The notes under the pieces were generated by a model, which searched no databases, was not told the DNA's origin, and was given only the letters and a program-made list of their open reading frames with translations. Shown here piece by piece: positions 11,719-53,188 of a stretch of 64,000 nucleotides of DNA; the stretch's first letter is position 1, and each line of letters starts with the position of its first letter. The DNA lies in IMG/VR virus record IMGVR_UViG_3300024235_000344, positions 4,982 through 68,981 of that record; one strand, 5' to 3'. The stretch comes from a virus (lineage: Duplodnaviria > Caudoviricetes). The translations under genes were made by a program, and so were the position numbers.

Positions 11719-12131
11719 TCGAGATTACCCTCAGCACTTACATCAATTAATCCACCGAGTTGCTCGATAAAATCCTTACCAACGAGTATTTTATACTCAT
11801 TTTCTGTTCTATCACCTATAGAGAATTTTGTATTAGGGTGCAATTCATCACCTATTTTAATATCAAACTCTACAACAGGTCTTTGCTCTATATTACCTGA
11901 TCCGATATTAATATCGATTAATTCAACTACTGGTTTAGTAATCGTCTGACCGTTAACAGTCTCGAATGTAACATTATCTCCATTATGGTCTATATTTACA
12001 CCATGCAAGACATTGTAAGCCCCATTGCCGCTATCAATCTTAGCTTCAATGGGACCTAGGTCTTCAAATGTAATAGTTTCGATCAACCCTAATGGTTGAT
12101 TTGATTCAAAAAAATGTTTAAAGGTAATCAC
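11715..12131 (-). CDS. Retropepsin-like aspartic peptidase (RimK-associated type)
   Basis: 'AKIDSGN', 'RPVVEFDIKIG', 'FSIGDR', 'ILVGKDFI'; GTG start 5 nt after TAAATA. Confidence 0.8.
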   Translation of the reverse strand: MITFKHFFESNQPLGLIETITFEDLGPIEAKIDSGNGAYNVLHGVNIDHNGDNVTFETVNGQTITKPVVELIDINIGSGNIEQRPVVEFDIKIGDELHPNTKFSIGDRTENEYKILVGKDFIEQLGGLIDVSAEGNLD

Positions 12132-12139
12132 ATTATTAT

Positions 12140-12328
12140 TTATGCTTTACCTTCGTTCTTCTTCTCTTGAATTTGCTTACGAATTTCTTTTGTAAGTTTT
12201 GCAATTTCTAGAAGAGCTTTTCTAGCTCTTGTACCTGCAGCTCCTACCCCTTTTTCGTTAAATTTTTCAATTTCTTCTTGAAAAATATTATACTGTTCTG
12301 TTAGATCATTAATAAGTTCTGTATTCAT
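12140..12328 (-). CDS. Histone H1-like Hc1-family small DNA-binding protein
   Basis: 'KGVGAAGTRARKALLEIAKLTKEIRK'; TATAAATA upstream (12336-12343). Confidence 0.7.
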   Translation of the reverse strand: MNTELINDLTEQYNIFQEEIEKFNEKGVGAAGTRARKALLEIAKLTKEIRKQIQEKKNEGKA

Positions 12329-12338
12329 AATACTATAT

Positions 12339-13022
12339 TTATACCGTTATAATACCTTTATCAATCCATGACCTATAACAAAAATGAATACCGTAAATAT
12401 AATCTTGATTTATGTAATCAGATATACATTTTATTGATTCAAAATGCTTACAGTTAAATACAGTTACATCATGTTTATTTATTCTTAAAAAATTAGTTAT
12501 AAAATGACTACCACCTCCACAATAAATTGTTTGCTTTAAAATATCTGATTTAGTTATATCTTTTTGTATAAAATATCTTATCTGTTTACATATTTTATTA
12601 AAAAATAACGAGTTATTATTATACATGATATAATTATCAATAATAATATTATCAGTAGCACCTTTTTTCATCATTTGATTATTACTTTCAAATATACAAG
12701 CCTTCTTACCTTCTAATAACGGTTCAATATTTTTAAAAAAATGTATATCTAAATCAGAATATAAACCACCATATTCATTTAAAATAAAAAGCCTTGATGA
12801 ATCAATTTTTTGAATTGTATGTTCATAATTATCAAATATATCTAAAAAATAAGGATATTTTTCCTTTATTAAAATTCTACATTCATCTAAATTCCACAAT
12901 TTATAATTCCAATCTTTATGATTTAAAATTAAAGATTTTTGTAAATCTAAATATTTTTCAGGTAATTTATTACCTGTCCAAATTTGATGTAAATTTTTCT
13001 TTATATTTATTGTATCCATCAC
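12339..13022 (-). CDS. GT32 (OCH1-like, DxD) glycosyltransferase
   Basis: 'KKNLHQIW', 'DWNYKLWN', 'DSSRLFILNEYGGLYSDLD'. Confidence 0.88.
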   Translation of the reverse strand: MMDTINIKKNLHQIWTGNKLPEKYLDLQKSLILNHKDWNYKLWNLDECRILIKEKYPYFLDIFDNYEHTIQKIDSSRLFILNEYGGLYSDLDIHFFKNIEPLLEGKKACIFESNNQMMKKGATDNIIIDNYIMYNNNSLFFNKICKQIRYFIQKDITKSDILKQTIYCGGGSHFITNFLRINKHDVTVFNCKHFESIKCISDYINQDYIYGIHFCYRSWIDKGIITV

Positions 13023-13719
13023 CTGACCACATTATTGAATCATCTAGATGATTTTTATCTTTATATTTATCATCTAATAAATTTATTTGTATTTTATCTG
13101 TATAAAATGTATGTAGAGCGTGGTGATCTGCATCCCAATTATAAAAATTTTTTTCTTTAAAAATATAATTATATATTTTCTTAATATAATCTATATTTAT
13201 CTGATTATTCTTAAAAAGCAAAAAACCTTCATTACAAAAAATATCATCGTTGTTTGGATCTGTTACGGTTAATATATCATATTTTAAATTATCAAATAAA
13301 TGGTCAAAATTTTGTAAAAATATTGTATCAACATCCAACGATAAAACATTATAATTATTTTTTAAAAGTTCATTAATCGTTTTAAATCTCGAGTGGCATG
13401 TATAAAAACTTCGCGGGCTATATAATATTTTTTTCATATCAAAAATATTTTTTATTTTATAAACGTTATTTATTTGATTTTTTTCTTTTGTTTTGAATAG
13501 TGTTTTCTTACTACTTAAATTAGGGTTATCTATAATAAAAGATACCTCTTTATATTTTTTAATTATATCTGCCTTTTGTTTATCATCAAAATCAATTAAT
13601 CTTACAAATAATTTAGTATTCATACCTGTTTTTTGGTATGTTTGTATAAAAGTATCTAAATATTTTATATAATTATAATCAGTACTACATGTTATTGCAT
13701 TATTCAAAATAGTTTTCAT
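12970..13719 (-). CDS. Nucleotide-diphospho-sugar transferase (GT77/GT34-like)
   Basis: 'HSRFKTINELL..YNVLSLDVDTIF', 'CNEGFLLF', 'WDADH'; start set to 13719. Confidence 0.7.
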   Translation of the reverse strand: MKTILNNAITCSTDYNYIKYLDTFIQTYQKTGMNTKLFVRLIDFDDKQKADIIKKYKEVSFIIDNPNLSSKKTLFKTKEKNQINNVYKIKNIFDMKKILYSPRSFYTCHSRFKTINELLKNNYNVLSLDVDTIFLQNFDHLFDNLKYDILTVTDPNNDDIFCNEGFLLFKNNQINIDYIKKIYNYIFKEKNFYNWDADHHALHTFYTDKIQINLLDDKYKDKNHLDDSIMWSGDGYNKYKEKFTSNLDR

Positions 13720-14794
13720 ATTTACTCTTTCTTCTAACATCTAATGTAGTACAATGATGAGCACCACTAAAAATTTCGCAGTGTCTAAAAGGGGTTCCTA
13801 TTGCTTCAATATTGTACTTTTTAAGTTTATCATTGAGCTGATCAGCATATTGAGGGTGACATACAATAAGTTCTTTAGATATACTAAAGACATTCAATTC
13901 TATACGTGGTGAAGCTAATTTTATACCTTGAGTATCGATCTCACTCTTACTACGTTCTCTCATAGGTATAGTTATAATATCCCATGATTGTAATTCTTTT
14001 GGTAATTTCTCTTTAATATAATCTTTTGTTACAATTGCTAATCCAGGTTTAAGTGGGAGAAATGATGAATCAATATGAGAATCTGCTAAAGATGTTGTAA
14101 GTATTTTGTAATCATTACCTAACGTATTCTGTAACCATTGTGCTCCAAGTCTTTGATTTTCGTTTGCAACATTCATTAATATATGCTTCCCCATACGTAC
14201 GCAATTTGCTGCATCAAACATTATTTCATGACCACAATCCATATAATGAGGTTTGAGTTGTTGTTCACTATAATGCTGCCTACCATTATTTTCATCTATC
14301 CAAGATAAATCAAAACTATTATCAGTCATTAAAGGTTTTGGAGATTGTATCCACTTACTACCACTTTTAAAATATTCTAAAAAAAGATGATGTAAAAAAT
14401 CATTTTCAAAATATCTATAACGACATGTTGGAGACGATTCAATAATTGTATCACCGACGATCATCGCCATATCTCTAACATTTAATGCAGGATGATTAGT
14501 ACTATCCCATAAAGGTGTTTTAATTTGTTCTAACCGCTGAGGTTTTTTAGGTCTACGTACTTTTATATTTAAAGATTTAAGTAATTCACAGAATTTTTCT
14601 ATATCTTCAGAATGTTCTTCACAATGACGCTTGCTTATAGTTTGGTTACCAAATTCATAATGCTTTGTATTCCAAAGATTTTCATGAAAAAAAAGTTTAA
14701 ATGAATAATCTAATAACGGTAATGATGTTGGAAACCCATCACCAACGATTACTTCTTCTAATTGATCCCATTCATTATGGCTATTGACTATCAT
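13700..14794 (-). CDS. Amidinotransferase (glycine / inosamine-phosphate amidinotransferase family)
   Basis: 'VNSHNEWDQLEEVIVG', 'NVRD', 'FDAAN', 'HIDS', 'GAHHCTTLDVRR' with Asp-His-Cys triad. Confidence 0.92.
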   Translation of the reverse strand: MIVNSHNEWDQLEEVIVGDGFPTSLPLLDYSFKLFFHENLWNTKHYEFGNQTISKRHCEEHSEDIEKFCELLKSLNIKVRRPKKPQRLEQIKTPLWDSTNHPALNVRDMAMIVGDTIIESSPTCRYRYFENDFLHHLFLEYFKSGSKWIQSPKPLMTDNSFDLSWIDENNGRQHYSEQQLKPHYMDCGHEIMFDAANCVRMGKHILMNVANENQRLGAQWLQNTLGNDYKILTTSLADSHIDSSFLPLKPGLAIVTKDYIKEKLPKELQSWDIITIPMRERSKSEIDTQGIKLASPRIELNVFSISKELIVCHPQYADQLNDKLKKYNIEAIGTPFRHCEIFSGAHHCTTLDVRRKSKYENYFE

Positions 14795-15596
14795 ATTTTT
14801 TTAATTCTTCTAATTGTATTTTTAAACTATGCGTAACTGGTTTATTATATATTGAACATAATGATCTATCTAAATTACCAGTTATTTTAGTACCTTCAAT
14901 AGTATGCGCATTTTGTTTATTAATAGTAATATTTAAATCGTAAACTTTATTTATCAATTTACATATTTCATATTTACTGATAATTTTAGAGCTAAAAATA
15001 TGGCGAACACCGTTCCAAAAATTTTCATGTAATATAATTTTAAATATCTGCTTAGCTAACTCTAAAGCAGTTATACCATTCCATAGACAGTTAACATAAC
15101 CATTAATCGTTTTATTTTGATTATTAATAACCCATTTCATTAAACCTACACCATCATTGTTTAAATCGTTACCTATAAACGATGTTCTAATTATAGTACC
15201 ATTTATAACTCTCCTTTTTGTTATAGCGTATACATCAGTTGCATCACACTTATCTATCTCACTATAGTTACCTTTATCTCCTTTAAATACACAGTCGGAA
15301 CATATATGTATGAACTTTGCATCGTTACGTTTGCATATATTATTTAATATAATAGGGAATGTTGTGTTTATAATATGCGTTTCAGCAATACCTACAGTAT
15401 CGATATATGGTTTTAGAATACCAACACAATTAATTACAACATCATTTTGATTTATTATTTTATCAAAATAATTTACATCAACATTTAAAGCATCAAAGTG
15501 ATTTCTATTTAATTCTACAACCTTAAAGTATTGCTTTAGATAGCTTGATATATACCCACCAGCCATTCCTGTAGAACCTAAAACTATTATTTTCAT
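14781..15596 (-). CDS. RmlD-like NDP-sugar reductase (SDR)
   Basis: 'GSTGMAG', 'HICSDCVFKG', 'YAITK', 'IRTSFIG'. Confidence 0.85.
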   Translation of the reverse strand: MKIIVLGSTGMAGGYISSYLKQYFKVVELNRNHFDALNVDVNYFDKIINQNDVVINCVGILKPYIDTVGIAETHIINTTFPIILNNICKRNDAKFIHICSDCVFKGDKGNYSEIDKCDATDVYAITKRRVINGTIIRTSFIGNDLNNDGVGLMKWVINNQNKTINGYVNCLWNGITALELAKQIFKIILHENFWNGVRHIFSSKIISKYEICKLINKVYDLNITINKQNAHTIEGTKITGNLDRSLCSIYNKPVTHSLKIQLEELKKYDSQ

Positions 15597-16213
15597 CTAA
15601 AGCAATTTAATTTAGATAAATCTACTGCGTATTCATCACTTGTAGAGCTATCAATATTTTTACCATTAACATTATAAAAATTTTGTATACCAATTACAGC
15701 TTGTTCAGGAGACATATACATATGATAACCAATATCTTCAACACTCATTTTTAACATATCATTATAATATATTGAAGGCCTACCATCATATCGCATTCGT
15801 CTAAACCAATCAGCAGCATGCTTTTCATCAGTTAAAATCATACCACCTTTACCTGTTGATAATATTTTTTTAAAATTAAACGATATACAATAAAAAGTAT
15901 TGGATTTAAACATTTGTTCGGTAAATCTCTGAGCAGAATCTACCACTGGTATATTACCGATAGTATATGCACCAGACCAAGACTTATCTACAAACTTTAC
16001 TTTATAACCAGCATGTATAGCTTGCATAGGTACGGAAATATAAGTACGTTTGGGTATTTCAACAAATTCAACAGAATTGTTACCTAATTTACAATACTTC
16101 ATTGATAAAAACAATGCATTAGTACAGCTATCCACAGCTATAGCATACTTACTACCAGCATATTCTGCTATTATTTCTTCAAATTTATCTACATTATCCC
16201 AAACAGTATTCAT
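15593..16213 (-). CDS. Short DegT/DnrJ/EryC1/StrS-family PLP sugar aminotransferase
   Basis: 'FEEIIAEYAGSKYAIAVDSCTNAL', 'VVDSAQ', 'SFNFKKILSTGKGGMILTD'. Confidence 0.85.
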   Translation of the reverse strand: MNTVWDNVDKFEEIIAEYAGSKYAIAVDSCTNALFLSMKYCKLGNNSVEFVEIPKRTYISVPMQAIHAGYKVKFVDKSWSGAYTIGNIPVVDSAQRFTEQMFKSNTFYCISFNFKKILSTGKGGMILTDEKHAADWFRRMRYDGRPSIYYNDMLKMSVEDIGYHMYMSPEQAVIGIQNFYNVNGKNIDSSTSDEYAVDLSKLNCFR

Positions 16214-16937
16214 TATTTACAATTAAATTTCTATCTTTTCGATATTTATTATTTTTTAAATTTATATCAAATTTCACCGACCCATAATCTTCGGGTTTTG
16301 AAAATTTAGTAATATCAATATCTCCAATACCTTTATTTGTTAAAGTAAATTTATCATGATTTATACCATTACAAAGATTATTATCATAATCATTAGGTTT
16401 ATCATAGCTTATCAATTTAACTGAATATTTAATAGATACATCTTGTATGTAATTCCAAATATCAGAAGTTATTTCATTAACAATTGGCTGACAAAAATGT
16501 ACAATATCATATTTTCCTTTTTGTAATAATTCTTCGTATGACAAAAAATCGATATTTTTTTCTTTTATTGAACTTATAAATTTATATTTTTCAATAGTTT
16601 TTAATTTTAATGTATTAACTAACTTATAAATTTCATCAACTGCTTGTTTACGTGTTTCGTATATATTCAATAAATTTGTTTCATTTAACATGTGATCACA
16701 CCAAAATATTTTTTTATTATTTTTTTTATTAAAACCTATTCCCGCGTTTATTGTTTCAATTGAACTATTATTATATAAACCATATAAAGTAGTATATAAA
16801 TTAGGTAATGGTTCTATAAGTGTACCAGTCCAATTATATGCTTTTATATAATGGTAAAAGGTATCATCTGTTATACCATCTCCAGCTCCAGGGTGTAATA
16901 ATTTAAGATTATCATTTAATCTAATTATTTTTTTCAT
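16194..16937 (-). CDS. Divergent FkbM-family SAM methyltransferase
   Basis: 'HPGAGDGITDDTFY..I..YNWTGTLIEP' resembles the FkbM N-terminus. Confidence 0.55.
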   Translation of the reverse strand: MKKIIRLNDNLKLLHPGAGDGITDDTFYHYIKAYNWTGTLIEPLPNLYTTLYGLYNNSSIETINAGIGFNKKNNKKIFWCDHMLNETNLLNIYETRKQAVDEIYKLVNTLKLKTIEKYKFISSIKEKNIDFLSYEELLQKGKYDIVHFCQPIVNEITSDIWNYIQDVSIKYSVKLISYDKPNDYDNNLCNGINHDKFTLTNKGIGDIDITKFSKPEDYGSVKFDINLKNNKYRKDRNLIVNNEYCLG

Positions 16938-17554
16938 GATTTTTGATATATTAAATTAAAACCTTCAGCATATATTGTATTGCATTCCATACCTCTAAAC
17001 ATCGCATATACCATAATTCCATCTTCTGATCTCGGGTTAGGAAACTTTCTAACTTCGTTCTTATATTCATAAAAACGTTTTATTTTAAAATTTATATCAG
17101 TTAATGAAAGTTCTTCATAATAGTTACATTTAAAGTTGTTGTTAAATGACTGTGTGGTAGAAGATGGAATTTCATACATTACAATCTTATCAGGTGAATG
17201 TTCTTGATATCTTCTTAAAACAACTTCACATACTTCATAAACGGCTTTATGATCCATATTGAAATCATCTTTATTAGGTATAAAAACTATATTCGGTTTT
17301 AAATTATTATATATTTTTTCAACACTTTTTAACAATTTATTTTTTATAATATTGTACGATTCGTCTTGAAATGGTAAAATATGAACAGATGTAAAATCTT
17401 TTGTAGCTTTCTCTATTTGAATGACATCGTCATTTTTCCTTACACCGCATATTATTACATGTACTTCATTACCTGTATTGATATACTTATGAGCCGTTCC
17501 ACCTACCCCGAGTAGTTCATCATCCGCATGCGGGGCTATAATAAGATTAACCAT
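16934..17554 (-). CDS. PIG-L/LmbE-family N-acetylglucosamine deacetylase
   Basis: 'IIAPHADDELLG', 'NMDHKAV', 'YEIPSST', 'FPNPRS..G','AEGF'; start set to 17554. Confidence 0.88.
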   Translation of the reverse strand: MVNLIIAPHADDELLGVGGTAHKYINTGNEVHVIICGVRKNDDVIQIEKATKDFTSVHILPFQDESYNIIKNKLLKSVEKIYNNLKPNIVFIPNKDDFNMDHKAVYEVCEVVLRRYQEHSPDKIVMYEIPSSTTQSFNNNFKCNYYEELSLTDINFKIKRFYEYKNEVRKFPNPRSEDGIMVYAMFRGMECNTIYAEGFNLIYQKS

Positions 17555-18437
17555 GTATATAATTATATAAAACTTTGCTACCTTCAAGAAAATTAACTGT
17601 TGGTTCCCAGTTTAATAGTTTTTTAGCTTTTGAATTATCAACTATCTTACCTTTATAATCACCTAATCTTTCATCTGTGTATATAATTTTAACTTCTTTT
17701 CCATGAAGCTCTTGAACTCTTTCCGCAACATTTTTAATAGATATTGATTGAGCACCTTCTAAATTAATTATTTGATTTTTTGCTTTTTCAGATAATGCTA
17801 ATCTATTACCTCTCGCATGATCTGTAACATAAAGAAAATTTCGATATATATTACCGTTACCGGTAACAACCAAAGGTTTACCTGATATTGCATTCGATAT
17901 AAATTTTGATAAAACTGTATCAGGATGACAACCTGGACCATATGCAATGCCGTATCTTAAAATGGTAAAATCTATACCTCTTACATTTTGGTAGTTTCTA
18001 ATTATAGCTTCGCATGTGAGCTTACACGTTGTATATATGTGATCACTGTTAGAAATAGATAAGTTTGTATCTTCGTTAACTTCTGTAACATTGCATACAC
18101 TATATACCCAAACTGTAGATGAAAATATAATCCGCGGTATACCTAATTCATACATAGCATCCAACGTATTTGTTAAAGACATTATATTGGTATTAACAGC
18201 TTTCTTTATATCTATATGATTTTCTTTACTATCAGATATCGCAGCAAACATGTATACTGCATCAAACTTTTTTAAACTCAATGCTTTTTTAACCCTAATA
18301 TAATCTATTACATCGACTGTTATATCAGAATTTTCTTTAATGTCTATAACTGTTACATCATAACCATGAGATTGTAATTCTTTTTTTGTAAATGTACCTA
18401 TAAAACCTGCACCTCCAATAATAGCAATATTGCTCAT
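17547..18437 (-). CDS. NAD-dependent epimerase/dehydratase
   Basis: 'GGAGFIG', 'FSSTVWVY', 'YTTCK', 'LRYGIAYGP'. Confidence 0.9.
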   Translation of the reverse strand: MSNIAIIGGAGFIGTFTKKELQSHGYDVTVIDIKENSDITVDVIDYIRVKKALSLKKFDAVYMFAAISDSKENHIDIKKAVNTNIMSLTNTLDAMYELGIPRIIFSSTVWVYSVCNVTEVNEDTNLSISNSDHIYTTCKLTCEAIIRNYQNVRGIDFTILRYGIAYGPGCHPDTVLSKFISNAISGKPLVVTGNGNIYRNFLYVTDHARGNRLALSEKAKNQIINLEGAQSISIKNVAERVQELHGKEVKIIYTDERLGDYKGKIVDNSKAKKLLNWEPTVNFLEGSKVLYNYIHG

Positions 18438-18452
18438 ATATTATTATAGTAA

Positions 18453-18983
18453 CTAACCTTTATGATACCACGGTGATTCTAATCTTTTTAAATATTTACT
18501 GAGTATAAAATATTTTTCACATACTAATGTAGTTCTTAGATTTTTTTGATATTTTACTGAGTTTACACTATGTTCAGCACCTGCAGGTAATATTATAGAA
18601 CTATTTGTTAATGGTTTAAACTCAACATCATCAACTACAATTTCACCACCGGTCATTTCAGGGCATATATCAACATAATATACTTCTGTTTCCGGTAGAA
18701 ATATCATAAAATCAGGTTGCTCTTCTTTAATTCTTTCTACTAAATCACCATCAACATGCGGTTCAATATAACCATTTTCAAATGTATAAAATCCAATAAA
18801 ATTATACACGTTAAAATTACCTTTAATTGCAAATTTCAAAAAATCAGGTAAATCTTCTTTTTTAAATGTTACAGCAAAACATCTCTTACCGTTATAATCA
18901 TCATCAAGGTATTCATTATTATGGATCCAGTTATAGATTTCATTACGTTGTTGTTCAGGTAAATAATTCTCTTCAAGCTTCAT
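18453..18983 (-). CDS. 2OG-Fe(II) oxygenase
   Basis: 'EPHVDGD', 'GGEIVV', 'LPAGAEHSV' (HxD...H). Confidence 0.7.
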   Translation of the reverse strand: MKLEENYLPEQQRNEIYNWIHNNEYLDDDYNGKRCFAVTFKKEDLPDFLKFAIKGNFNVYNFIGFYTFENGYIEPHVDGDLVERIKEEQPDFMIFLPETEVYYVDICPEMTGGEIVVDDVEFKPLTNSSIILPAGAEHSVNSVKYQKNLRTTLVCEKYFILSKYLKRLESPWYHKG

Positions 18984-19794
18984 TATATTTTGTAAGTTCT
19001 TGTCTATACATGTTATTTATTATTTTTTCATCAGACTGTCCACTCCACATATAACTGTTAACATCATAAACAGGTCCGTTATCTTTGTATTTTTTATCTA
19101 CATAAAAGATATTAATATCAATTTCAGATAACAATTTTTGAAATTCTACTTCATCTGCTTCAATATCAAAAATATCAGCATTCACTCTTTCTTCAAGAAT
19201 ATTATAAAAATTTTTAGATATTTCTGTATTGTTTATATACATAAAGCCAGCATTCCAACCCATATATTTTTCTCCGTGTTTTGTTGTAAAACAATTAATA
19301 TCATTTTTATCAATAAACATACCTAAATCAAAATCCTTAGTATCATCTATAATAGAATTAAAGTTTTTATTTACTATGGTATCTACATCTAAATATAAAA
19401 TATATTTAAAATCATTTATTAATAATTTATTGATAGTATTAAATTTTATATTACTACAATAAACTCCTTCACACCGTTTAAAAATTGTATTACCGAATTT
19501 ACTTTTTTTTACCTTTTCTTGCAACTCACTGTAGTTTAATGTCTTTGAATCTTCGTAGTTTACAATAATTTCATCTTTAAACTCTTTATTTTCATATATT
19601 TTTAATAAATCAAAATTTATATATTCATATGGAAAATCATCGCAGTTAACTAGTCTCAATACCACGTTTAAATTATTACAATTTTTATTAATAGAATTTA
19701 AAAAAGGTTTTACATATTGAATATATTTTTGATTAGACGTACATACAACCGTTAACTTATTTTTATCTAACTCATTAATACTTTTTACGTTCAT
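18973..19794 (-). CDS. Nucleotide-diphospho-sugar transferase (GT77/GT8-like)
   Basis: 'ILYLDVDTIV', 'WNAGFMYI'; resembles 12970..13719. Confidence 0.7.
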   Translation of the reverse strand: MNVKSINELDKNKLTVVCTSNQKYIQYVKPFLNSINKNCNNLNVVLRLVNCDDFPYEYINFDLLKIYENKEFKDEIIVNYEDSKTLNYSELQEKVKKSKFGNTIFKRCEGVYCSNIKFNTINKLLINDFKYILYLDVDTIVNKNFNSIIDDTKDFDLGMFIDKNDINCFTTKHGEKYMGWNAGFMYINNTEISKNFYNILEERVNADIFDIEADEVEFQKLLSEIDINIFYVDKKYKDNGPVYDVNSYMWSGQSDEKIINNMYRQELTKYNEA

Positions 19795-19800
19795 TTGATT

Positions 19801-20724
19801 CTACCAGGATTCAGTACATTTAGCACATATACCTTTATATATATTATTTTTTTGGTTATTTACTACTTCTAACCACGGAGGACTTGAATATATTTCTTCT
19901 AACGTCTGTTTAAATAAGTTACCAACAATTCCTTTTCTTTCTAAATCATTAAATGCGCAAAAAAGAAAATCACCGTTCGGTAATACACCACCACCATCAC
20001 CTGGCCCCATAGGACATAGCCCGGTTTTTTCTCTTTCAATATATTCAAACCCTTCCAAATTATCAGCTCTGTTAGTATTATATACCTCACCAGTATTAAT
20101 ACTGATATTATTACTCTTTAACAATTTATGTATAATATAATATAACGGTGTTTTTGGGAATTCTGCATCAAAACATTTATTGCAACGTATATTTAAGTCT
20201 AATAAACTTTTAGTTTCTTTTTTTGTGAATATATCCCCGACTTTATTAAGTCTATCTAAAAATATATCATATCGATCTCTATTTGTGTTTTCAATATAAC
20301 TTTGTTTATCATAACCATATACCGAAACATTTAAATATAATTTTTTACATTTTTTGATGATATCTAGATGCTCATCCTTTAACTGTGTTAAGTTTGAAGA
20401 TATCATATAATATTTAATTTTATCATTATTTTCTAAAAATAATATTTTTTCTATAATACCTTTATCTATAAACGGTTCACCAACTGCAGGTGTAATTTGT
20501 ATATGGTTTATACCATAATCAGTAGCTCTATTGACAAGAAAAACAAAATCTTCTTGAGACATTGTTTTTGTTTTCGATAATTCATTAATATTTTTTATTG
20601 AACCTCTACAAAAAAAGCAATTTAAATTGCATAAAAAAATAGTTTGAAAATTTAATGTAGTTCCAAGGTACTCTAATTTTTTAGCTTCTTCGAAACGAGG
20701 ATCTTTATTTTTATTTAGTTGCAT
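19801..20724 (-). CDS. Radical SAM enzyme with SPASM/twitch domain
   Basis: 'CNLNCFFC', 'GEPF', C-terminal 'CPMG...PNGDFLFC...GNLFKQTLEEI...CAKC'. Confidence 0.9.
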   Translation of the reverse strand: MQLNKNKDPRFEEAKKLEYLGTTLNFQTIFLCNLNCFFCRGSIKNINELSKTKTMSQEDFVFLVNRATDYGINHIQITPAVGEPFIDKGIIEKILFLENNDKIKYYMISSNLTQLKDEHLDIIKKCKKLYLNVSVYGYDKQSYIENTNRDRYDIFLDRLNKVGDIFTKKETKSLLDLNIRCNKCFDAEFPKTPLYYIIHKLLKSNNISINTGEVYNTNRADNLEGFEYIEREKTGLCPMGPGDGGGVLPNGDFLFCAFNDLERKGIVGNLFKQTLEEIYSSPPWLEVVNNQKNNIYKGICAKCTESW

Positions 20725-20777
20725 TATTTTAAAAGAGGTTATTTAAATAATAAACCCTAATTTATCAAGTAGTTATA

Positions 20778-21623
20778 CTACAACTCTTTTATTTTATTCT
20801 TACTTTTAGTAAACGAATCTTCACCATTTGCATCTTCAATAAATCCTGGAATTGGTAATAAAATAGTGGGAAAATCTTCTAAAATTTCCCACGGTTCATT
20901 TTTATTATCTATTGAGATTATACTTGCTTTAACTGCATCTGATATCATAGTTTTTATAACTTCCATTTCAGCATCTTCATCAGGCGCTACTCCACCTTCT
21001 CTTATCTCTTTATTAATATTATCAATTGCTTGATCTTTAAAAATATTTATAACATTTTTAAAAGTATCTTTGAAATATTGAATATCATTAATTTTATCAT
21101 TTTTATATTCATCAAAGGTAATGTTAAATGCAATTGAGAATAAAGCTTCATTATATGTTAATGTTTTAGATAATAGTAATTGGTAATATATATTAAATAA
21201 TTTTATACTATATTTTGTAGTATATTTTTTAATATCTGCTTTAAGTTTATTTTTTTGTTCAAGCTGATCATCAACAAGTTTTTGAGTCTCAGTATTAACT
21301 TTGTTAATTAATTCTTCATCATCTATAAAATATAACCTAGACGGATTTTCCGCATTAGCTAGCTCACAATTATAATAAGTGTAAGATAATTCATCATCTA
21401 TACTATATTTAAACCATTTTTTATTTAATAAATCGTAAAAAATATAATATAAATCTGTACCAGAATGATTTATTTTTTTAGTAATATCGTCACCGATTAT
21501 AGATTTGTTTAATGTTACATATGTAAATACCGGTAAGCCGTTCTTAATATAAGTTACACCGATGATAAATTTACTTGCTAAACTATGCACTAGCTCGTAA
21601 TTACTGTTAAAATATTGTTCCAT
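20778..21623 (-). CDS. Hypothetical protein
   Basis: 281-aa ORF, apparently co-transcribed with 21629..22192. Confidence 0.65.
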   Translation of the reverse strand: MEQYFNSNYELVHSLASKFIIGVTYIKNGLPVFTYVTLNKSIIGDDITKKINHSGTDLYYIFYDLLNKKWFKYSIDDELSYTYYNCELANAENPSRLYFIDDEELINKVNTETQKLVDDQLEQKNKLKADIKKYTTKYSIKLFNIYYQLLLSKTLTYNEALFSIAFNITFDEYKNDKINDIQYFKDTFKNVINIFKDQAIDNINKEIREGGVAPDEDAEMEVIKTMISDAVKASIISIDNKNEPWEILEDFPTILLPIPGFIEDANGEDSFTKSKNKIKEL

Positions 21624-21628
21624 AATTA

Positions 21629-22192
21629 TTATTGTTGAATGTTGTTATATACATTGACTGCACCACCGTAACCTACTACTACAGCTCTAGATATTTGAGT
21701 TGTACCTATACTTAACCCATCGCGCGCACATACAGTATATGTACCATGAGATAAACCATCTTTACCACGGGAACGTAGTGTGCAGTTAGGGGTAGCTGTA
21801 TCTTCCACGCAGGTGACCCAGCTTGAATCACCTGGCACTTTAAACGAGTAATTCTTTTTACCTCCTGCATCCGTAACTACAGATTGACAACACAGATATA
21901 TTTCAGCTGATCCGTTATTAGCAGTACCATATGTCGTTGGTGACTCTGGATTAGTTTTTGCACACCCTGTAATTACTGAAGCTTGTTTAAATTCACTCCA
22001 TTTAACTTCAGCAGTACCAGATACATCTTTTGGCATAGACGCATTACCTACATACCAATTACGGTTAGATTTAACACCCATTATCGAATTACATTGTGTT
22101 GCTTGTCGAGTATTTGTACCTCTAACTATGTTAATACAACTTGCTCCTAAACATGTTTCTTCGTTTATTTCAATAAAATCACCTGTTGCCAT
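21629..22192 (-). CDS. Cys/Ser/Thr/Gly-rich probable virion surface or adhesin protein
   Basis: TAAATA-N5-ATG at 22192; 9 Cys; 'SGTAEVKWSEFKQAS'; Ig/SprB-like 'GLSHGTYTVCARDG'. Confidence 0.45.
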   Translation of the reverse strand: MATGDFIEINEETCLGASCINIVRGTNTRQATQCNSIMGVKSNRNWYVGNASMPKDVSGTAEVKWSEFKQASVITGCAKTNPESPTTYGTANNGSAEIYLCCQSVVTDAGGKKNYSFKVPGDSSWVTCVEDTATPNCTLRSRGKDGLSHGTYTVCARDGLSIGTTQISRAVVVGYGGAVNVYNNIQQ

Positions 22193-22250
22193 AATATTAT
22201 TTATCAATAATATATACCTTTAACAACTATAATAAAAAAACTACATTACA

Positions 22251-23141
22251 TTAATTATCTACTAAAATAATATTATATGAAGTTGAGACAGCTGTTCCTG
22301 TAGCACCATCCCACGCTCTTACCTCCAGATCTGTCTTTGCAGGGAAAGCTAACGGAACTTTATAATCTTTAATAGAATAGTTATTTAAAAACATTACATC
22401 TTTTATTCTTAAGATTTTACCGTCGTTAACTTCCGATGCTACAAAATATGCATGTACCTTCGCATTATAGTCACTACTACCGACTGACCATTGAGTTAGA
22501 TATCCCGTTTTACCAGCTGGTATAGTATAGACGCTAGTTTGGGATTGACCGAACCCCTCTTTTTTACTACCTGAACCTTTTGTACTTATAGCTATAATAG
22601 GGCTAACATTTGAATTTATATCTATAAGACCTGCATTTGTTCCATCTGAACCTGCTGTTTTAACGATAGCTCTAAAAACTCTTAAAAATTCATTTGTAGA
22701 TTCTGGTCCACCATTTCGACCATCTGTAGCGTTGCAAGATATAACTTCTGTAATAGTATTATAATTAACATCCAACCCTTGTATTTCAATAGTCCTAGCA
22801 CCTGTACCATTTAATGCATCTTCTGAGTCATCACTAATAGCAGACAATTTAGAAGCAGTTGTAAGGTAGTTATATATACCCCCCTCTTCCCAGATTGTCT
22901 GGAGATCAGCATTTACTGACAAATTAGCTCCAAACTTCTCAATGTAGCCTTGCGACTCAGTACCGCTACCGATACCGGTATTAAAAGGATCGACTTGCTG
23001 TACTAAGATTGCTGATTTATTAAAAACTCCTTGACCTTGACCTCCAGTAACTGCTGGATACCGGCTATCATTTTCAATCTCAACATATTTCATGTAGTTG
23101 AGAGTATTTTCCGGTGTATTTATAGTTGTCTTAATACTCAT
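22251..23141 (-). CDS. Probable virion structural beta-protein
   Basis: TAAATA-N5-ATG; 'GTGARTIEIQGLD..Y..ITE', 'FLRVFRA', 'YTIPAGKTGYL' recalled from phage structural proteins. Confidence 0.5.
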   Translation of the reverse strand: MSIKTTINTPENTLNYMKYVEIENDSRYPAVTGGQGQGVFNKSAILVQQVDPFNTGIGSGTESQGYIEKFGANLSVNADLQTIWEEGGIYNYLTTASKLSAISDDSEDALNGTGARTIEIQGLDVNYNTITEVISCNATDGRNGGPESTNEFLRVFRAIVKTAGSDGTNAGLIDINSNVSPIIAISTKGSGSKKEGFGQSQTSVYTIPAGKTGYLTQWSVGSSDYNAKVHAYFVASEVNDGKILRIKDVMFLNNYSIKDYKVPLAFPAKTDLEVRAWDGATGTAVSTSYNIILVDN

Positions 23142-23168
23142 ACTATTATTTAATGTATCCTCATATCT

Positions 23169-23792
23169 TTACCATTTCTTGCATGACCAGTAACCTGCAG
23201 TAGTTTTATCTTTCTTTTGATCGCATTTATGTCTAGCTCTAAAAGATTTACGAGCCTTTGGATTACTCTTACGGATCTTCATCGTTTTTTCTCCTCTACT
23301 CTTAGCAGATGTACCTCCGTGTCCGAAATTTACCTTCTTCACGTTACCAGTCTTAGGGTCCTTTACATATACCTTAAACTTCTTAACATCTCCTCTTGTA
23401 GGTTTATTAAGAGTTACTTTTCTACCTTTATATTCTGCATCCTCTTCTGGAAGACCTGAAAGTCTTTCTTCAGCTTCTTCATAGCTCCACTCTTCTTCAT
23501 CACAATCATGATAATTTATAAATCTTTGAGCTGCCTTAGCTGTGTTTGATCCTTTATCTTTAGTACCGCTCTTTAAGCTCTTAGCCTTTGAACATGTAAT
23601 TTTGCCTTTGATCTGGTTAGATAAAATACCAGGATTTACTGCCTTGTGCTTATCTTCTGCGTTTTCAGACTTCTCACATGAACCTTGTTCGCTACGCTTC
23701 TTACCTGGTACTTTTTTATACCCATCCCAGCACTTTTTTGCATCTTCTTCTAATGTTTCCATTACCGATTCATATAATCTATTAAAGTTCAT
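23169..23792 (-). CDS. Late basic protein with conserved Cys/His-containing modules of T4-like aquatic phages
   Basis: 'KKCWDGYKK', 'KVNFG', 'KSNPKARKSFRARHKC...AGYWSCKKW'; TAAATA-N5-ATG. Confidence 0.6.
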   Translation of the reverse strand: MNFNRLYESVMETLEEDAKKCWDGYKKVPGKKRSEQGSCEKSENAEDKHKAVNPGILSNQIKGKITCSKAKSLKSGTKDKGSNTAKAAQRFINYHDCDEEEWSYEEAEERLSGLPEEDAEYKGRKVTLNKPTRGDVKKFKVYVKDPKTGNVKKVNFGHGGTSAKSRGEKTMKIRKSNPKARKSFRARHKCDQKKDKTTAGYWSCKKW

Positions 23793-23809
23793 AAAATTAT
23801 TTAATCTAG

Positions 23810-23817
23810 TATAAATA
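23810..23817 (+). promoter_or_regulatory. T4-type late promoter TATAAATA
   Basis: Exact consensus 5 nt before ATG 23823; a divergent TAAATA serves 23792. Confidence 0.7.
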
Positions 23818-23822
23818 ATTAT

Positions 23823-24458
23823 ATGGCATCATTCGATAGTAATTTAATTTTTGAGAAATATAAGCAAGTAAATGAAAATCTTGGGTATGGTATTGGTAAA
23901 TCAATCAACGTTCCAGGACCTGGTGGTCAATCCACCGGGGCAAAGGTTGTATTCGCTCTAGTGAAGCCTGAACATGATCATTCAGAATGTGAAGAAGGTA
24001 AAAACGGTTGCACATGTGGAGGTTGCCCTGAATGTACAAAAAATGCTGAAGATGCTGAGAATTATGCAGAAGATGAATGCGGTCGTTCACATAGCGATGA
24101 AGAAGTTTATATTCAAGCCGGCGACGATGCTGAAGAATCAAATTGCGGTTGCGGTCAAACACCATGCATGGGTCAAGTAGAAGATGATGATGACTTTGAT
24201 GGTGAGATAGATATGGCAAGAGCTGAATTACTTAAAGCAGCTGAATATGCTACAAAATTATTCAATCATCTTGCTAATGTTGGTAGCTTAGAAGGTTGGA
24301 CAGCAAGTAAAATTACAAAAGCTTCTGATTACCTTTCATCTGTATACCATGCATTAGAATATGATGCATTAGATGCTAATGTTGAAGACGAAGAAGACGA
24401 TATTGAAATCGACGAGTTTGACGAAACTAATGTAGCTAAAAAGACAGGATTTGCTTAA
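23823..24458 (+). CDS. Acidic late protein, probable head-internal protein
   Basis: 'DSNLIFEKY' N-terminus; 'DMARAELLKAAEYATKL...WTASKITKASDYLSSVY' module. Confidence 0.6.
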   Translation: MASFDSNLIFEKYKQVNENLGYGIGKSINVPGPGGQSTGAKVVFALVKPEHDHSECEEGKNGCTCGGCPECTKNAEDAENYAEDECGRSHSDEEVYIQAGDDAEESNCGCGQTPCMGQVEDDDDFDGEIDMARAELLKAAEYATKLFNHLANVGSLEGWTASKITKASDYLSSVYHALEYDALDANVEDEEDDIEIDEFDETNVAKKTGFA

Positions 24459-26355
24459 TATTAGCTTTATCTTCTGTAGATAATACTTCAGGTGTAAAAT
24501 AGTCGATAGCTTTATCGATATCCGAAGCAATTAACTCTCTTGTCATTGTACCTGATATACCTTCTGATTGAAGAGGTATTTTTACAACACGTACTAACGG
24601 GTATTTCTCTATATTCTTCTCAAAGTATGCATACCGCTTTACATCGTCGTCTTTATCACCAGCTCCTACTATAATATTAACATCTTTATTATTATCTGCG
24701 TAATCGTATACTGATTTAACAGGTGTAACGTCAGAAATAATAACTTCAACAGGTTTATTTAAATATTTTGCATATATTTCCCATATCTGCTTTGATTGCT
24801 CAGCTGTAATACCATCTCTTTCCTTTTTACCTATAAAAATTACACCTCTATCAGCATCTTGTAAGATATAATCGAAAGAATGGTAGTGACCTTTTGTAGG
24901 TGGCTTGTAACCACCGGGATATAAAGCAATTGTTTCGGTATTTTCATCTTCAGCAATTAGTTTATTATATAAATCATTGAACTTCTCACCAAATGTATTT
25001 GTAGTAACAGGTAAACCACCTCTACCAAAATTATCGGCACGATACGGTGGATTTGAATAGACTGATTTAACTGACTCTTGTTCTGATGCAGCAGGTGTAT
25101 CAGCTGGCTTACCAGTACCGAAATTAGCAGCACTAAACTCGCCTCTATCTACTAATTTAGTAATTTGAGCACCATCAGCATCTACTCTTGATAATGCAAA
25201 CCCTTCCGGAGCTGTAGTTTGCCATTCACCAGGAGCATCTTCTAAGTATGTACCTAATAAATCATTCTGAGTAATTTCGTTGAATATTTTAATTAAGTTA
25301 TTCTTAAGATTTGCAATAATTTTAGTAATTTCAAAAGCATTCTTAATGGAAGGTCTAAGTTTCTTAAGAGCTGATAAAGTATTCTTCATCTGAGTTGTCT
25401 TTTTCTCTTTACCCTTCTCGCTCTTTAACTTCTCAATATCTTTTACAAATTTACCTGATATCCAGTTAACAAATTCTTCTGTCGATATGCTTGTATCCTC
25501 AAGAAACCTACCAGCTCTTATCTCTGAGTTAATGTATGTCTTTAATAAAGCAGTATAATCATCGAGAGAGCTAAAATCTACCTTGTCAGCTAACTTTAAA
25601 ACTTGGTTCTTCTTCTTTTGTACATCTTTTAGTAGTAATTTACTGAACGATGACTTTGCATTTTTAGGCTTATTAGCTAAAACATTAAAAACAAAAACTG
25701 TACTTGATGGTGAGAACTCTTCTGGAGCAGAAGTATATTTTTTAACCTTTAATATACCATTTTGTACCATATATTCAATATGAATAGCTACTCCAATTTT
25801 AGCTTTATTAATTTCATCACCGTATGGGCTGTTTTCTGTAACAGCATACTTAATTGTATTAGGGGTAAATGTGGTAAAGCGATTTTCATTAACAACTCCG
25901 TCAATAGTTTGAGGAGTTTCTTGAATCTTCATCTGAGGATCAAACATATAATCCATTTGATAAATACCTTTTATGTTTAATGATGGTAAATATCTGAGAG
26001 CTAATTTTAACTTGTCTGCTAAACCACCAGTACCGTGATTATCAATAATATCTTGATCAGTATAGTTAATCTTAGGGTTCTTAGCGAAAGCTGACTTACT
26101 TGCTACGAAAAACTTACCATTTGTATCTAAACCTGCTACAATAGCAGGAGCTCCGTCAAATTTAGTAGAGATCTTATAATCAGATTCATCAACAAAGTAA
26201 GCAATTGACGATTCAATCTGGTTAATTGCTTCAATTACACCCTGCTTACCTTTATTGAGAATATTCTCTTCTAAATGATCGATATGCTTTACTGCACCAT
26301 CGATTGCGTCAAAGAATTCTAATATTACGCTGTGATGTTGTTTAAATGATTTCAT
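24436..26355 (-). CDS. Fusion of a KxDG ligase-like nucleotidyltransferase domain and a HIGH-family cytidyltransferase-like domain
   Basis: 'HIDHLE', 'STKFDGAPAIVAG', 'PEGF' in N-domain; 'PGGYKPPTKGH', 'VGAGD', 'ISGTMTR' in C-domain. Confidence 0.7.
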   Translation of the reverse strand: MKSFKQHHSVILEFFDAIDGAVKHIDHLEENILNKGKQGVIEAINQIESSIAYFVDESDYKISTKFDGAPAIVAGLDTNGKFFVASKSAFAKNPKINYTDQDIIDNHGTGGLADKLKLALRYLPSLNIKGIYQMDYMFDPQMKIQETPQTIDGVVNENRFTTFTPNTIKYAVTENSPYGDEINKAKIGVAIHIEYMVQNGILKVKKYTSAPEEFSPSSTVFVFNVLANKPKNAKSSFSKLLLKDVQKKKNQVLKLADKVDFSSLDDYTALLKTYINSEIRAGRFLEDTSISTEEFVNWISGKFVKDIEKLKSEKGKEKKTTQMKNTLSALKKLRPSIKNAFEITKIIANLKNNLIKIFNEITQNDLLGTYLEDAPGEWQTTAPEGFALSRVDADGAQITKLVDRGEFSAANFGTGKPADTPAASEQESVKSVYSNPPYRADNFGRGGLPVTTNTFGEKFNDLYNKLIAEDENTETIALYPGGYKPPTKGHYHSFDYILQDADRGVIFIGKKERDGITAEQSKQIWEIYAKYLNKPVEVIISDVTPVKSVYDYADNNKDVNIIVGAGDKDDDVKRYAYFEKNIEKYPLVRVVKIPLQSEGISGTMTRELIASDIDKAIDYFTPEVLSTEDKANIKQILSF

Positions 26356-26356
26356 T

Positions 26357-27424
26357 TTATTTTAAAGTTAAATTAGCAAATGACCATCCAATACCATCTG
26401 ACCTCATAGCGAACTTAATAACTGCATCTGTATCTATTGCTTGGTGAATTTCGATAAGACTATTAACATCTCTCATATCTATAAGCTTGAACAATATTTG
26501 GTCATTACCTTGATTTATAAAACATGAAAATACATCGAATTTCTGCACTTGTTGGTATGAATATAACTGAGCTAATCCTCCAATATAAATCATACGACTA
26601 CTAGTAGTACCCGTACCAGTAATCAATCTACCTCTTTTCTTAAAAAAATTATACTCTGAAATAATATCATCTGAAAAAGTATGTACCATTTCACGAACTA
26701 GTTGTTTAATATGTTGTGTACCTGATAGATCGCATATAAAGTCTGTTACTCCATCTAATATATCGTCATCATTTTCGAAATCTTTTTGAATATGCGAGAA
26801 ATCTTTTTTAACATTCGCTTTAAAAAGTCTACCACCTTTACCTTTTAACTCAATATCTATACCCGCCACATGAAGATCACCTTTATCAGGCTTAGTACCA
26901 TTGCAAAAGTATGCTAAATATAATTCACCTTCACCAGCTCTACCAAATCGTGGCGCTTCAGGGGTAGTTGCGAAAGCAGGTTTAAAGTATGAACTTGTAA
27001 CATCGCTTTGAGGCCAATTTTTCTTAATAAAATTATCTAGATAAAATACTTGATCATTTTCAATATAATCTAATAACAGCTGCTCACTACTTTTAAAGTT
27101 ATTATCAGACATATCAAATTCACCTTCCATCATATATCTTTGCCATATATCAGCATTATTATCAATGTTACCGTTACATCTTTCTAATTTTTCTTCAATT
27201 TTAGCTCTTAGATCAGTATTATTACTCGATCCCATATTAACATACGGTTTTACAACTTTATTATAGTATTCGTTACCTACATCACCTATATGTTGTATTT
27301 GTTCATCATTTTGTTTTGAATATATAGAAACTCCTTCACCTAATACACGCTGTCTAGGTAATTTACCTACTGATTTACCAGCAGATTCTTGTAAGTATAC
27401 TTGGTCTAATGATCGCCAGCTCAT
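26357..27424 (-). CDS. Putative restriction-endonuclease-fold nuclease
   Basis: 'GEGELYL...KPDKGDLHVAGIDIELKG' (PD-x-ExK-like). Confidence 0.5.
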   Translation of the reverse strand: MSWRSLDQVYLQESAGKSVGKLPRQRVLGEGVSIYSKQNDEQIQHIGDVGNEYYNKVVKPYVNMGSSNNTDLRAKIEEKLERCNGNIDNNADIWQRYMMEGEFDMSDNNFKSSEQLLLDYIENDQVFYLDNFIKKNWPQSDVTSSYFKPAFATTPEAPRFGRAGEGELYLAYFCNGTKPDKGDLHVAGIDIELKGKGGRLFKANVKKDFSHIQKDFENDDDILDGVTDFICDLSGTQHIKQLVREMVHTFSDDIISEYNFFKKRGRLITGTGTTSSRMIYIGGLAQLYSYQQVQKFDVFSCFINQGNDQILFKLIDMRDVNSLIEIHQAIDTDAVIKFAMRSDGIGWSFANLTLK

Positions 27425-27741
27425 GTTTCGATGTCAATATCGGTTGAATACTTTTTCATAACGTTTATTAACATTGTAAGTGTGTCTTTTGCATTTACTT
27501 CATTAATATCACTAAGAGATGATATTGTATCAACATCTTCTGGGTCAATTTCAGTTACAAGAGCTTTTTTAAGCAATCTAACCAAAAGAACTTCGCTTTC
27601 AGGTGATAATGTTTCAACTTCTGCTTCTGGTTCTTCTACCGGAAGTTCTTCAGCAGGTAATTCTCCTTCAACCGGTACCTCTTCAGCAGGTACATCATCT
27701 TGTTCAGTTATAATATTATATATTTTTAAGAATTTTTTCAT
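27421..27741 (-). CDS. Acidic hypothetical late protein
   Basis: 'MKKFLKIYNIITE' N-terminus, E/P-rich linker. Confidence 0.6.
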   Translation of the reverse strand: MKKFLKIYNIITEQDDVPAEEVPVEGELPAEELPVEEPEAEVETLSPESEVLLVRLLKKALVTEIDPEDVDTISSLSDINEVNAKDTLTMLINVMKKYSTDIDIET

Positions 27742-53187: not shown

Positions 53188-53188
53188 T

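Follow-up and report, generated by a model that had tools for sequence, protein, structure and literature searches.

Eleven minus-strand genes at 12339-20724 of the 64,000-nucleotide (nt) stretch analysed here (the window; positions 4,982 to 68,981 of IMG/VR virus record IMGVR_UViG_3300024235_000344) encode sugar-tailoring enzymes, glycosyltransferases (GTs), and an L-arginine-dependent amidinotransferase of the pentein fold. The source is an uncultured T4-like phage. A guanidino amino-sugar would be the most economical reading of the product of these predicted enzymes, and we tentatively interpret the locus as a phage-specific, modular glycan-building island that makes and transfers such a guanidino sugar. 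A narrower version seems to us somewhat doubtful: that a natural guanidino sugar (an arginine-amidinated amino hexose) is put by the GT-A transferases, possibly after hydroxylation of the acceptor, on virion proteins, e.g. tail fibres.

The eleven open reading frames (ORFs) fill the interval, and neighbours either overlap by 4-53 nt or leave gaps of at most 15 nt. Nine of the eleven products have Pfam matches, that of the FkbM-like methyltransferase lying below the cut-off; the amidinotransferase and a small oxygenase have none, and these two, as well as the ORFs upstream of the island, have no NCBIfam match. The first-pass annotation of this DNA had proposed eleven coupled enzymes, and gene-by-gene searches of Pfam, homology to entries of the Protein Data Bank (PDB), and predicted folds bore out all eleven calls, with the provisos that "epimerase" holds at the family level only, the DegT-type protein is truncated, and the FkbM assignment is weak. 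No island protein contains a hydrophobic stretch of transmembrane strength (the highest 19-residue hydropathy is 1.58), and Pfam scans found no initiating polyprenyl-phosphate transferase, flippase, polymerase, or transporter family in the island. The proteins, soluble and lacking membrane components, would thus tailor sugars and transfer them to a soluble acceptor in the cytoplasm.

Creatine synthesis is the familiar setting of amidinotransferases, which also take part in making a few toxins and antibiotics. The phage enzyme (13700-14794, minus strand, 364 amino acids (aa)) is homologous over its full length to SxtG and StrB1. A phmmer search of the PDB returned SxtG (7e-48), StrB1 (1.5e-46), HsvA (5e-42), and AGAT (2e-41), covering residues 2-363, and Pfam PF02274 gave no match at E<0.01. 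Residues D194, H240, and C348 align with D179, H227, and C332 of StrB1, and the Asp-His-Cys triad is invariant among 22 homologues, as expected from the earlier description of the triad as intact. The Asp residues around the guanidino site also align between the two proteins. The enzyme is therefore predicted, from its residues, to be catalytically competent. Its homologues form 296 clusters at E<=1e-10, many of them on contigs of 100-240 kb.

A scan of viral contigs with the single protein returned just one close relative, and an alignment-based scan of IMG/VR yielded 79 amidinotransferase loci, in which ORFs were called, compared with the window proteins, and clustered. Group A comprises 32 loci with an amidinotransferase at least 49% identical to the present one; in the tree these enzymes form one clade (support 0.97), apart from a second phage clade. 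Partner counts in group A are lower bounds, because a contig end often cuts the island short. The PIG-L-type deacetylase accompanies the amidinotransferase most constantly (30/32 loci), followed by a GT77/8-like transferase (27/32). The short DegT-type protein, the short-chain dehydrogenase/reductase (SDR), and the radical S-adenosylmethionine (SAM) enzyme each occur in 22/32, and the RmlD-like reductase in 18/32, always beside the short DegT gene. An acidic 281-aa protein encoded just upstream of the island recurs in 13/32 loci, and the small oxygenase and the GT32-type transferase in 12/32 each. Two gene orders recur, namely SDR / PIG-L / short DegT / RmlD-like / amidinotransferase / GT / GT32, and the block short DegT / RmlD-like / SDR / PIG-L. 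The survey of amidinotransferase neighbourhoods in phage genomes that the first-pass annotation had suggested thus finds the sugar partners recurring across dozens of contigs, and the cluster is co-conserved.

The relatives also carry extra genes: one to three more for radical SAM enzymes, one for a short class I/II aminotransferase, and others for transferases of the GT8, GT32, and GT31/Fringe-like kinds. The variety of the extra GT8, GT32, and GT31 transferases suggests that the oligosaccharide varies from phage to phage. Examples of the eukaryote-type GT31 (Galactosyl_T/Fringe-like) and additional GT8 genes lie at L025:11086-11850, L003:12614-13315, and L022:11091-11906, where the handles denote individual loci of the survey. 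In 80 cellular amidinotransferase loci (30-41% identical; mostly Streptomyces, cyanobacteria, and metagenome-assembled genomes) the partners are absent, save for a generic SDR in five. As found so far, the island is phage-specific.

The remaining 47 loci form group B, whose amidinotransferase is only ~25% identical and belongs to the other deep clade. About 40 of them (L036-L081, e.g. L070:8288-12942) share a module of UDP-glucose dehydrogenase, a 170-aa oxygenase-like protein, a 305-aa amidinotransferase, and two to three further proteins (~244, 419, and sometimes 200 aa) of unknown function and without Pfam matches; the module often adjoins UvdE. The oxygenase-like gene stands directly upstream of the amidinotransferase in 41 group-B loci. 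A profile comparison of this protein with the small oxygenase of the present island did not show homology (probability 0.1%), so we treat the two as analogues. A search of our record for UDP-glucose dehydrogenase matched only the Rossmann end of the island SDR. Among cultured phages, megablast of the island found no match. In 50,697 cultured phage records an amidinotransferase homologue occurs only in CP220-type Campylobacter phages and in Synechococcus phage S-SCSM2R, the latter being the sole cultured phage close to the group-B module.

The constant core around the amidinotransferase consists of four sugar enzymes. The extended SDR of the epimerase family (17547-18437, minus strand; Pfam Epimerase, 2.2e-40) has its best solved matches in UDP-glucose 4-epimerase (6e-29), UDP-glucuronate 4-epimerase, and UDP-glucuronate decarboxylase. 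In the alignment it carries the motif SSTxxVY at the place of TDE in RmlB-type enzymes, and the acid/base pair of the RmlB type is absent. The protein looks like an enzyme that would work at C4 of a nucleotide sugar, as an epimerase or decarboxylase more than as an RmlB-type dehydratase. The adjacent PIG-L/LmbE-type de-N-acetylase (16934-17587, minus strand; Pfam PIG-L, 1.3e-15) matches an LmbE-related protein, diacetylchitobiose deacetylase, and BshB, and its PHADDE sequence aligns with the metal-binding motif (AHxDD) of the LmbE-related protein. As far as is known, PIG-L enzymes deacetylate N-acetylglucosamine (GlcNAc) that is already attached to an aglycone. The RmlD-like gene (14781-15596, minus strand) encodes a putative NAD(P)H-dependent reductase of a nucleotide-4-keto sugar (Pfam RmlD_sub_bind, 1.8e-13); its TIGR01214 rmlD match of 5e-13 is far under the cut-off of that model.

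The fourth core member is a short DegT-type pyridoxal phosphate (PLP) enzyme (15593-16213, minus strand; Pfam DegT, 1.7e-22). With 206 aa, against ~370 in the usual enzymes, it aligns with residues ~40-106 and 178-246 of perosamine synthetase, and the C-terminal domain is missing. NCBIfam describes it as LegC/PseC-like. The PLP lysine (K116), the aspartate that contacts the pyridine nitrogen (D92), and a DGR motif are invariant in 19 short homologues of 195-218 aa. The model (predicted local distance difference test (pLDDT) 89.5) can be laid over the large domain of sugar aminotransferases, ArnB among them, and one of the two best solved matches of the protein is a glutamine:scyllo-inositol transaminase. 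The family is large, with more than 1000 clusters at 90% identity (~205-215 aa), several times more numerous than those of the amidinotransferase, and nearly all listed members have 200-220 aa. Given the missing domain and the constant length, we class the protein as a short PLP enzyme derived from DegT, with a putative activity. Whether such an enzyme would still transaminate is a separate enzymological puzzle posed by this family.

Between the PIG-L and short DegT genes lies the FkbM-like methyltransferase (16194-16937, minus strand), with a Methyltransf_21 match of E 4.9e-4 (20.7 bits against a Pfam cut-off of 22.7). In the ESM Atlas, 29 of its 30 nearest clusters are FkbM, and it reaches structural template-modelling (TM) scores of 0.6-0.65 to FkbM domains. 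No homologue of it was found in any of the 79 related viral loci, and in close relatives the PIG-L and short DegT genes abut at this very place. We therefore take the gene as a recent insertion in the present phage.

Three GT-A-type transferases belong to the island. The Nucleotid_trans/GT8-like enzyme at 18973-19794 (minus strand; Pfam PF03407, 6.7e-7, and PF01501, 2.9e-5) has no solved relative by sequence. It is paralogous to the GT77-like Nucleotid_trans enzyme at 12970-13740 (minus strand; PF03407, 4.8e-13), with which it shares a BLAST cluster, and the latter gene comes immediately after the amidinotransferase in almost every close relative. The GT32-type transferase with a DXD motif (12339-13022, minus strand; Pfam Gly_transf_sug, 1.5e-14) is weakly similar to the part of lymphostatin/Efa1 that resembles glycosyltransferases. 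A nucleotide-sugar block further along the window (52315-54897, plus strand) encodes an RmlD-type reductase, a nucleotidyltransferase, and a 4,6-dehydratase (Pfam RmlD_sub_bind 1.4e-17, NTP_transferase 4.6e-58, and GDP_Man_Dehyd/Epimerase 4.5e-62); a homologue of the dehydratase is present in two of the three complete related genomes. The presence of this block implies that a nucleoside-diphosphate-activated 4-keto-6-deoxyhexose would be available to the short DegT enzyme and the RmlD-like reductase, and the block may thus supply the island.

The small oxygenase (18453-18983, minus strand, 176 aa), for which Pfam and NCBIfam were silent, was assigned through its predicted fold and invariant residues. 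Its AlphaFold model (pLDDT 95.7) was matched by Foldseek to Dictyostelium PHD, PHD2, Pseudomonas P4H, PolD, and PiuC with E-values of 8e-6 to 1e-4, a probability of 1.00, and TM ~0.55-0.62. H76, D78, H138, and R150 (HxD...H...R) are invariant in 11 homologues. The model, with its double-stranded beta-helix fold, and the alignment, with the iron triad and the basic residue expected for the C5 carboxylate of 2-oxoglutarate (2OG), together confirm a prolyl-hydroxylase-type 2OG/Fe(II) oxygenase; the structure search placed it with prolyl hydroxylases and not with TET/JBP-like enzymes. This fold, next to cytoplasmic transferases of the GT8, GT32, and GT77-like types, recalls the hydroxyproline-linked glycosylation of Skp1 in protists, which is a lead only. 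The radical SAM enzyme at the upstream end of the island (19801-20724, minus strand, 307 aa; Pfam Radical_SAM 2.2e-12, SPASM 1.2e-7) has a CxxxCxxC motif, reading CNLNCFFC in the alignment, and a C-terminal SPASM domain. NCBIfam gave only generic weak matches (MoaA-like core, SPASM). The enzyme may oxidise, epimerise, or otherwise edit a sugar.

From these assignments we infer the following route. The core of SDR, PIG-L, short DegT, and RmlD-like enzymes would tailor a nucleotide sugar or an already transferred sugar, exposing or installing a primary amine, either the 2-amine of an N-acetylhexosamine (HexNAc) after deacetylation or a 4-amine on a 4-keto-6-deoxyhexose. The latter keto sugar could be made by the phage's own RmlA/RmlB-type genes elsewhere in the window. 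The amidinotransferase would move the amidino group of L-arginine onto Cys348 and then to the sugar amine, giving a guanidino sugar and ornithine. The three soluble GT-A transferases would build the sugars on an intracellular acceptor, which the 2OG oxygenase may first hydroxylate, and the radical SAM and FkbM-like enzymes could make further edits. The likeliest acceptor would be a phage protein made late in infection. The near-constant pairing of PIG-L and amidinotransferase also suggests a second route to the amine, in which HexNAc is transferred, deacetylated, and then amidinated. The amine-then-amidination logic of the first-pass annotation has a precedent in streptidine synthesis, where the DegT-family transaminase StsC, of the glutamine:scyllo-inositol transaminase type, acts before StrB1; one of the two best solved matches of the short DegT protein is of this type.

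The proposal of late expression draws on a motif resembling the T4 late promoter core. TAAATA-N5-RTG occurs 22 times in the window against 5.65 expected, and none of 100 shuffled sequences reached 22. One copy, TAAATA-N5-ATG at 22190-22203 (minus strand), stands before the ORF at 21629-22207 (minus strand), whose true start is likely the ATG at 22192 and which is probably the head of the transcription unit. No copy occurs from 12143 to 22189. The motif at 22192 and its absence inside the island suggest one late transcription unit of ~10 kb, provided that the motif acts as a promoter, as its sequence leads us to suppose. With TAAATA 5 nt from the start codon, a late promoter at this motif would give transcripts with almost no leader. 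Further sites, all on the minus strand, lie at 12129-12142, 23139-23152, and 23790-23803. A scan for sigma-70 promoters and terminators was uninformative in such AT-rich DNA (96 sites against 100 expected).

The gene between this head and the island encodes the acidic 281-aa protein (20778-21623, minus strand), which matched nothing in Pfam, PHROGs, NCBIfam, or the Atlas. Its homologues hold the same position in the 13 group-A loci, share few invariant residues, and carry the C-terminal motif PPILxPxPxFIED; no relatives were detected outside its phage group. It may be a partner, scaffold, or acceptor of the island enzymes. The supposition that virion proteins are encoded just upstream found no support, since the ORFs from 20778 to 28430 match only PHROGs of unknown function or nothing, and the homologues that cyanophages and other marine myophages carry have only hypothetical annotations. 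Among these ORFs, 24436-26355 (minus strand) joins a DUF6267 domain (E 6.5e-79) to a C-terminal region that shares 41% identity with the nicotinamide mononucleotide adenylyltransferase of Flavobacterium phage immuto. Nevertheless, two related lineages (L019 and L034; L025-L027) have the island directly behind tail-fibre genes on the same strand. This adjacency, together with the late-promoter-like motif, points indirectly to a link with the virion.

Several observations weigh against the main reading of a guanidino-sugar island. The amidinotransferase is ~30% identical, about equally, to enzymes whose respective acceptors are a cyclitol phosphate, glycine, a polyamine, and a toxin precursor, and at such equal distances the phylogeny cannot assign its acceptor. 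The truncated DegT protein may not be a transaminase, and an epimerase-like SDR would not by itself provide a free 4-keto sugar. If the PIG-L enzyme acts on attached GlcNAc, two different amines could serve as acceptor. Group-B loci are mostly devoid of PIG-L or DegT, so the sugar-amine scheme may not be general. The neighbours of the island in the window are not recognisable as virion proteins, and we know of no natural guanidino hexose on a glycoconjugate.

Two alternatives place the product among small soluble molecules. The amidinotransferase might make a guanidino compound such as guanidinoacetate, an amidinated polyamine, or a derivative of an amino acid, the accessory genes merely collecting in the island. 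The characterised relatives AGAT, CyrA, and HsvA do use glycine or polyamines, and the database name of the phage homologues is "glycine amidinotransferase". Moreover, a survey of ocean viruses reports a virus-enriched guanidinoacetate methyltransferase (PMC11360552), and the constant neighbour in group B is the small oxygenase-like protein and not a sugar enzyme. This explanation nevertheless appears improbable, given that the amidinotransferase keeps its place between the RmlD-like and GT genes, overlapping both, across many diverged contigs, that PIG-L accompanies it in nearly all group-A loci, and that the content of the island shifts around a stable sugar core to which the amidinotransferase itself belongs. 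We give even less credence to a free aminocyclitol or aminoglycoside-like metabolite, the reading implied by the "antibiotic synthesis" proposal for S-SCSM2R (PMC12801897). The enzyme set does run parallel to aminoglycoside pathways, with their DegT-type transaminase (StsC/BtrS), amidinotransferase (StrB1), PIG-L deacetylase (BtrD/NeoL), radical SAM enzyme (BtrN), and glycosyltransferases, but the scanned ORFs of the island and its flanks include no inositol-phosphate synthase or deoxy-scyllo-inosose synthase type, and the island has no kinase, phosphatase, exporter, or resistance gene. In addition, aminoglycoside glycosyltransferases are GT-B enzymes, whereas those of the island are GT-A, and it is hard to see what a lytic phage would gain from exporting an antibiotic.

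The other two alternatives name another target, the host envelope or the phage DNA. The "LPS genes" (for lipopolysaccharide, LPS) of T4-like cyanophages are usually read as envelope remodelling, and islands of epimerases, aminotransferases, and transferases are common in marine T4-like phages. Accordingly, the present island might put a cationic sugar on the LPS, capsule, or a surface protein of the host, for example against superinfection; ArnA/ArnB-type enzymes make the cationic 4-amino-4-deoxy-L-arabinose (Ara4N), and the superposition of the short DegT model on ArnB fits this. We regard such a role as unlikely, as the island encodes no membrane protein, none of the membrane-linked families listed above, and no segment of transmembrane strength, so that its product would have to be handed over to host machinery, and as GT-A enzymes of the GT8, GT32, and GT77-like types use soluble acceptors in many systems. 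A complete O-antigen or capsule pathway was rejected because its membrane components are absent from the island. The remaining alternative, to which we also assign a low probability, is hypermodification of phage DNA, with the GTs and/or the amidinotransferase acting on a modified base; the aminomethyl group of a 7-deazaguanine such as dPreQ1 and a hydroxylated pyrimidine are candidates. T4-like phages do use clusters of sugar-nucleotide enzymes and multiple transferases to build DNA glycans (PMC13326640; bioRxiv 10.1101/2023.12.21.572611), and the island sits in the replication/nucleotide part of the window, 1.2 kb from folE2. QueC occurs in all three complete group-A genomes (G001-G003, the records of L016, L027, and L030) and in CP220, and dPreQ1 (7-aminomethyl-7-deazaguanine) offers a primary amine. 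However, no thymidylate-synthase homologue (PF00303) was found in the incomplete 69-kb record or in two of the three complete relatives, which leaves these without a source of pyrimidines bearing a hydroxymethyl or hydroxy group. The DNA arabinosyltransferases of PMC13326640 are GT-B-like and not GT-A, the small oxygenase does not resemble TET/JBP enzymes, and a late-promoter-like motif would be unusual for enzymes of DNA precursors. S-SCSM2R and the complete group-B genomes have amidinotransferase modules without QueC, and Flavobacterium phage immuto has a deazaguanine system with no amidinotransferase match. A general dependence of the island on 7-deazaguanine DNA was rejected on the strength of the QueC-free S-SCSM2R and complete group-B genomes, a rejection that does not extend to group A. 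A Pfam TGT search found no DpdA in G001-G003, and QueC may accompany the group-A island for a functional reason or through shared ancestry only.

The 68,981-base record that contains the window has a CheckV completeness of 33%, from which the full phage probably measures ~200 kb. The G+C content is ~30% and dips to 24-28% between 12 and 22 kb. Elsewhere in the window, T4-like replication genes encode a helicase, an SbcCD-like nuclease, a family B polymerase, UvsX, DnaB, and a primase; the polymerase shares only ~31% identity with its counterparts in cultured marine myophages. The GT32 gene is immediately followed, in the same orientation, by a gene for a 62-aa histone H1-like Hc1 protein (12140-12328, minus strand; Pfam PF07432, E 1.7e-18). 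It is kept at that place in 11 related loci, a puzzling location for a small protein that compacts DNA. We also observed two glycosyltransferase-like genes outside the island: one at 34913-36130 (plus strand), between the SbcC-like nuclease and the DNA polymerase, which belongs to phrog_7162 and has no Pfam match, and one at 45534-46226 (plus strand), a Glyco_tranf_2_5 protein adjoining GATase and GNAT genes. The phage would thus have at least five transferases in 64 kb.

What sets the present locus apart is an amidinotransferase that is a fixed member of an island for sugar tailoring and transfer, so far found only in phages, with an orthologue on at least 32 IMG/VR contigs and ~300 homologue clusters. 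If the acceptor is a sugar, the product, a guanidino glycan with a permanent positive charge, would add a new sugar modification to those known in biology, and phages would have a new way of decorating the virus particle, the phage DNA, or the infected cell, by which adsorption, host range, or defence evasion could be affected. If the target is a virion protein, it would carry a new cationic protein glycan, and amidinotransferases would have a new role outside small-molecule metabolism.

Among characterised systems, StrB1, the L-arginine:inosamine-phosphate amidinotransferase of Streptomyces (PDB 1bwd), shares with the phage enzyme its full-length homology, the triad, a DegT-family enzyme in the same cluster, and the logic of amine formation followed by amidination. 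It differs in that the phage protein, at ~30% identity, forms a clade of its own, has no cyclitol pathway around it, and is partnered by nucleotide-sugar enzymes, GT-A transferases, and a DegT protein of half the usual length. Viruses are also known to glycosylate their virion proteins in the cytoplasm, as in the capsid and tail of mycobacteriophages and in the glycans of chloroviruses and mimivirus with their tailored 4-amino-6-deoxy sugars. The island resembles these systems in its soluble, virus-encoded transferases and tailoring enzymes, its independence of host membrane machinery, and its adjacency to tail-fibre genes in two related lineages. None of them is known to include an amidinotransferase, and the island, known from genes alone, is not beside recognisable structural genes in the window. 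The DNA glycan clusters of RB69 and DLP3 (PMC13326640) are likewise multi-gene sets of sugar-nucleotide enzymes and transferases in the replication part of T4-like genomes; however, they need a thymidylate-synthase homologue that makes 5-hydroxy-deoxycytidine monophosphate and GT-B-like transferases, neither of which was found here.

The first-pass annotation knew of no such phage pathway, which was nearly right: our literature search found no functional test of such modules, but the genes themselves had been noticed twice. In the T4-like Campylobacter phages CP220 and CPt10, radical SAM genes and a "glycine amidinotransferase" were described in 2010 as an exchangeable accessory module to which no role was assigned (PMC2853527). 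Their amidinotransferase, 32% identical to ours, is flanked by radical SAM and two nucleotide-diphospho-sugar transferase genes. Five radical SAM genes are present in CP220, where no PIG-L, DegT, SDR, or RmlD-like gene is recognisable, whereas the present island combines one radical SAM gene with the full core, and can be described as a variant with few radical SAM genes and many nucleotide-sugar enzymes. In S-SCSM2R, three genes of the corresponding region were called "antibiotic synthesis genes" in 2025, and the virion proteome holds a different amidinotransferase and a prolyl-hydroxylase-like protein (PMC12801897). Its ORF301-310 encode a 195-aa DegT-like protein (40% identical), a radical SAM/SPASM enzyme, several GTs, and a small 2OG-type oxygenase directly before the amidinotransferase, which is followed by another transferase (GT2). 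This amidinotransferase is only 26% identical and falls in the other deep clade, and the region has no PIG-L, SDR, or RmlD-like gene; for its small oxygenase, too, profile comparison did not show homology to the one of the present island. As cultured phages with related modules, CP220 and S-SCSM2R make the question testable at the bench.

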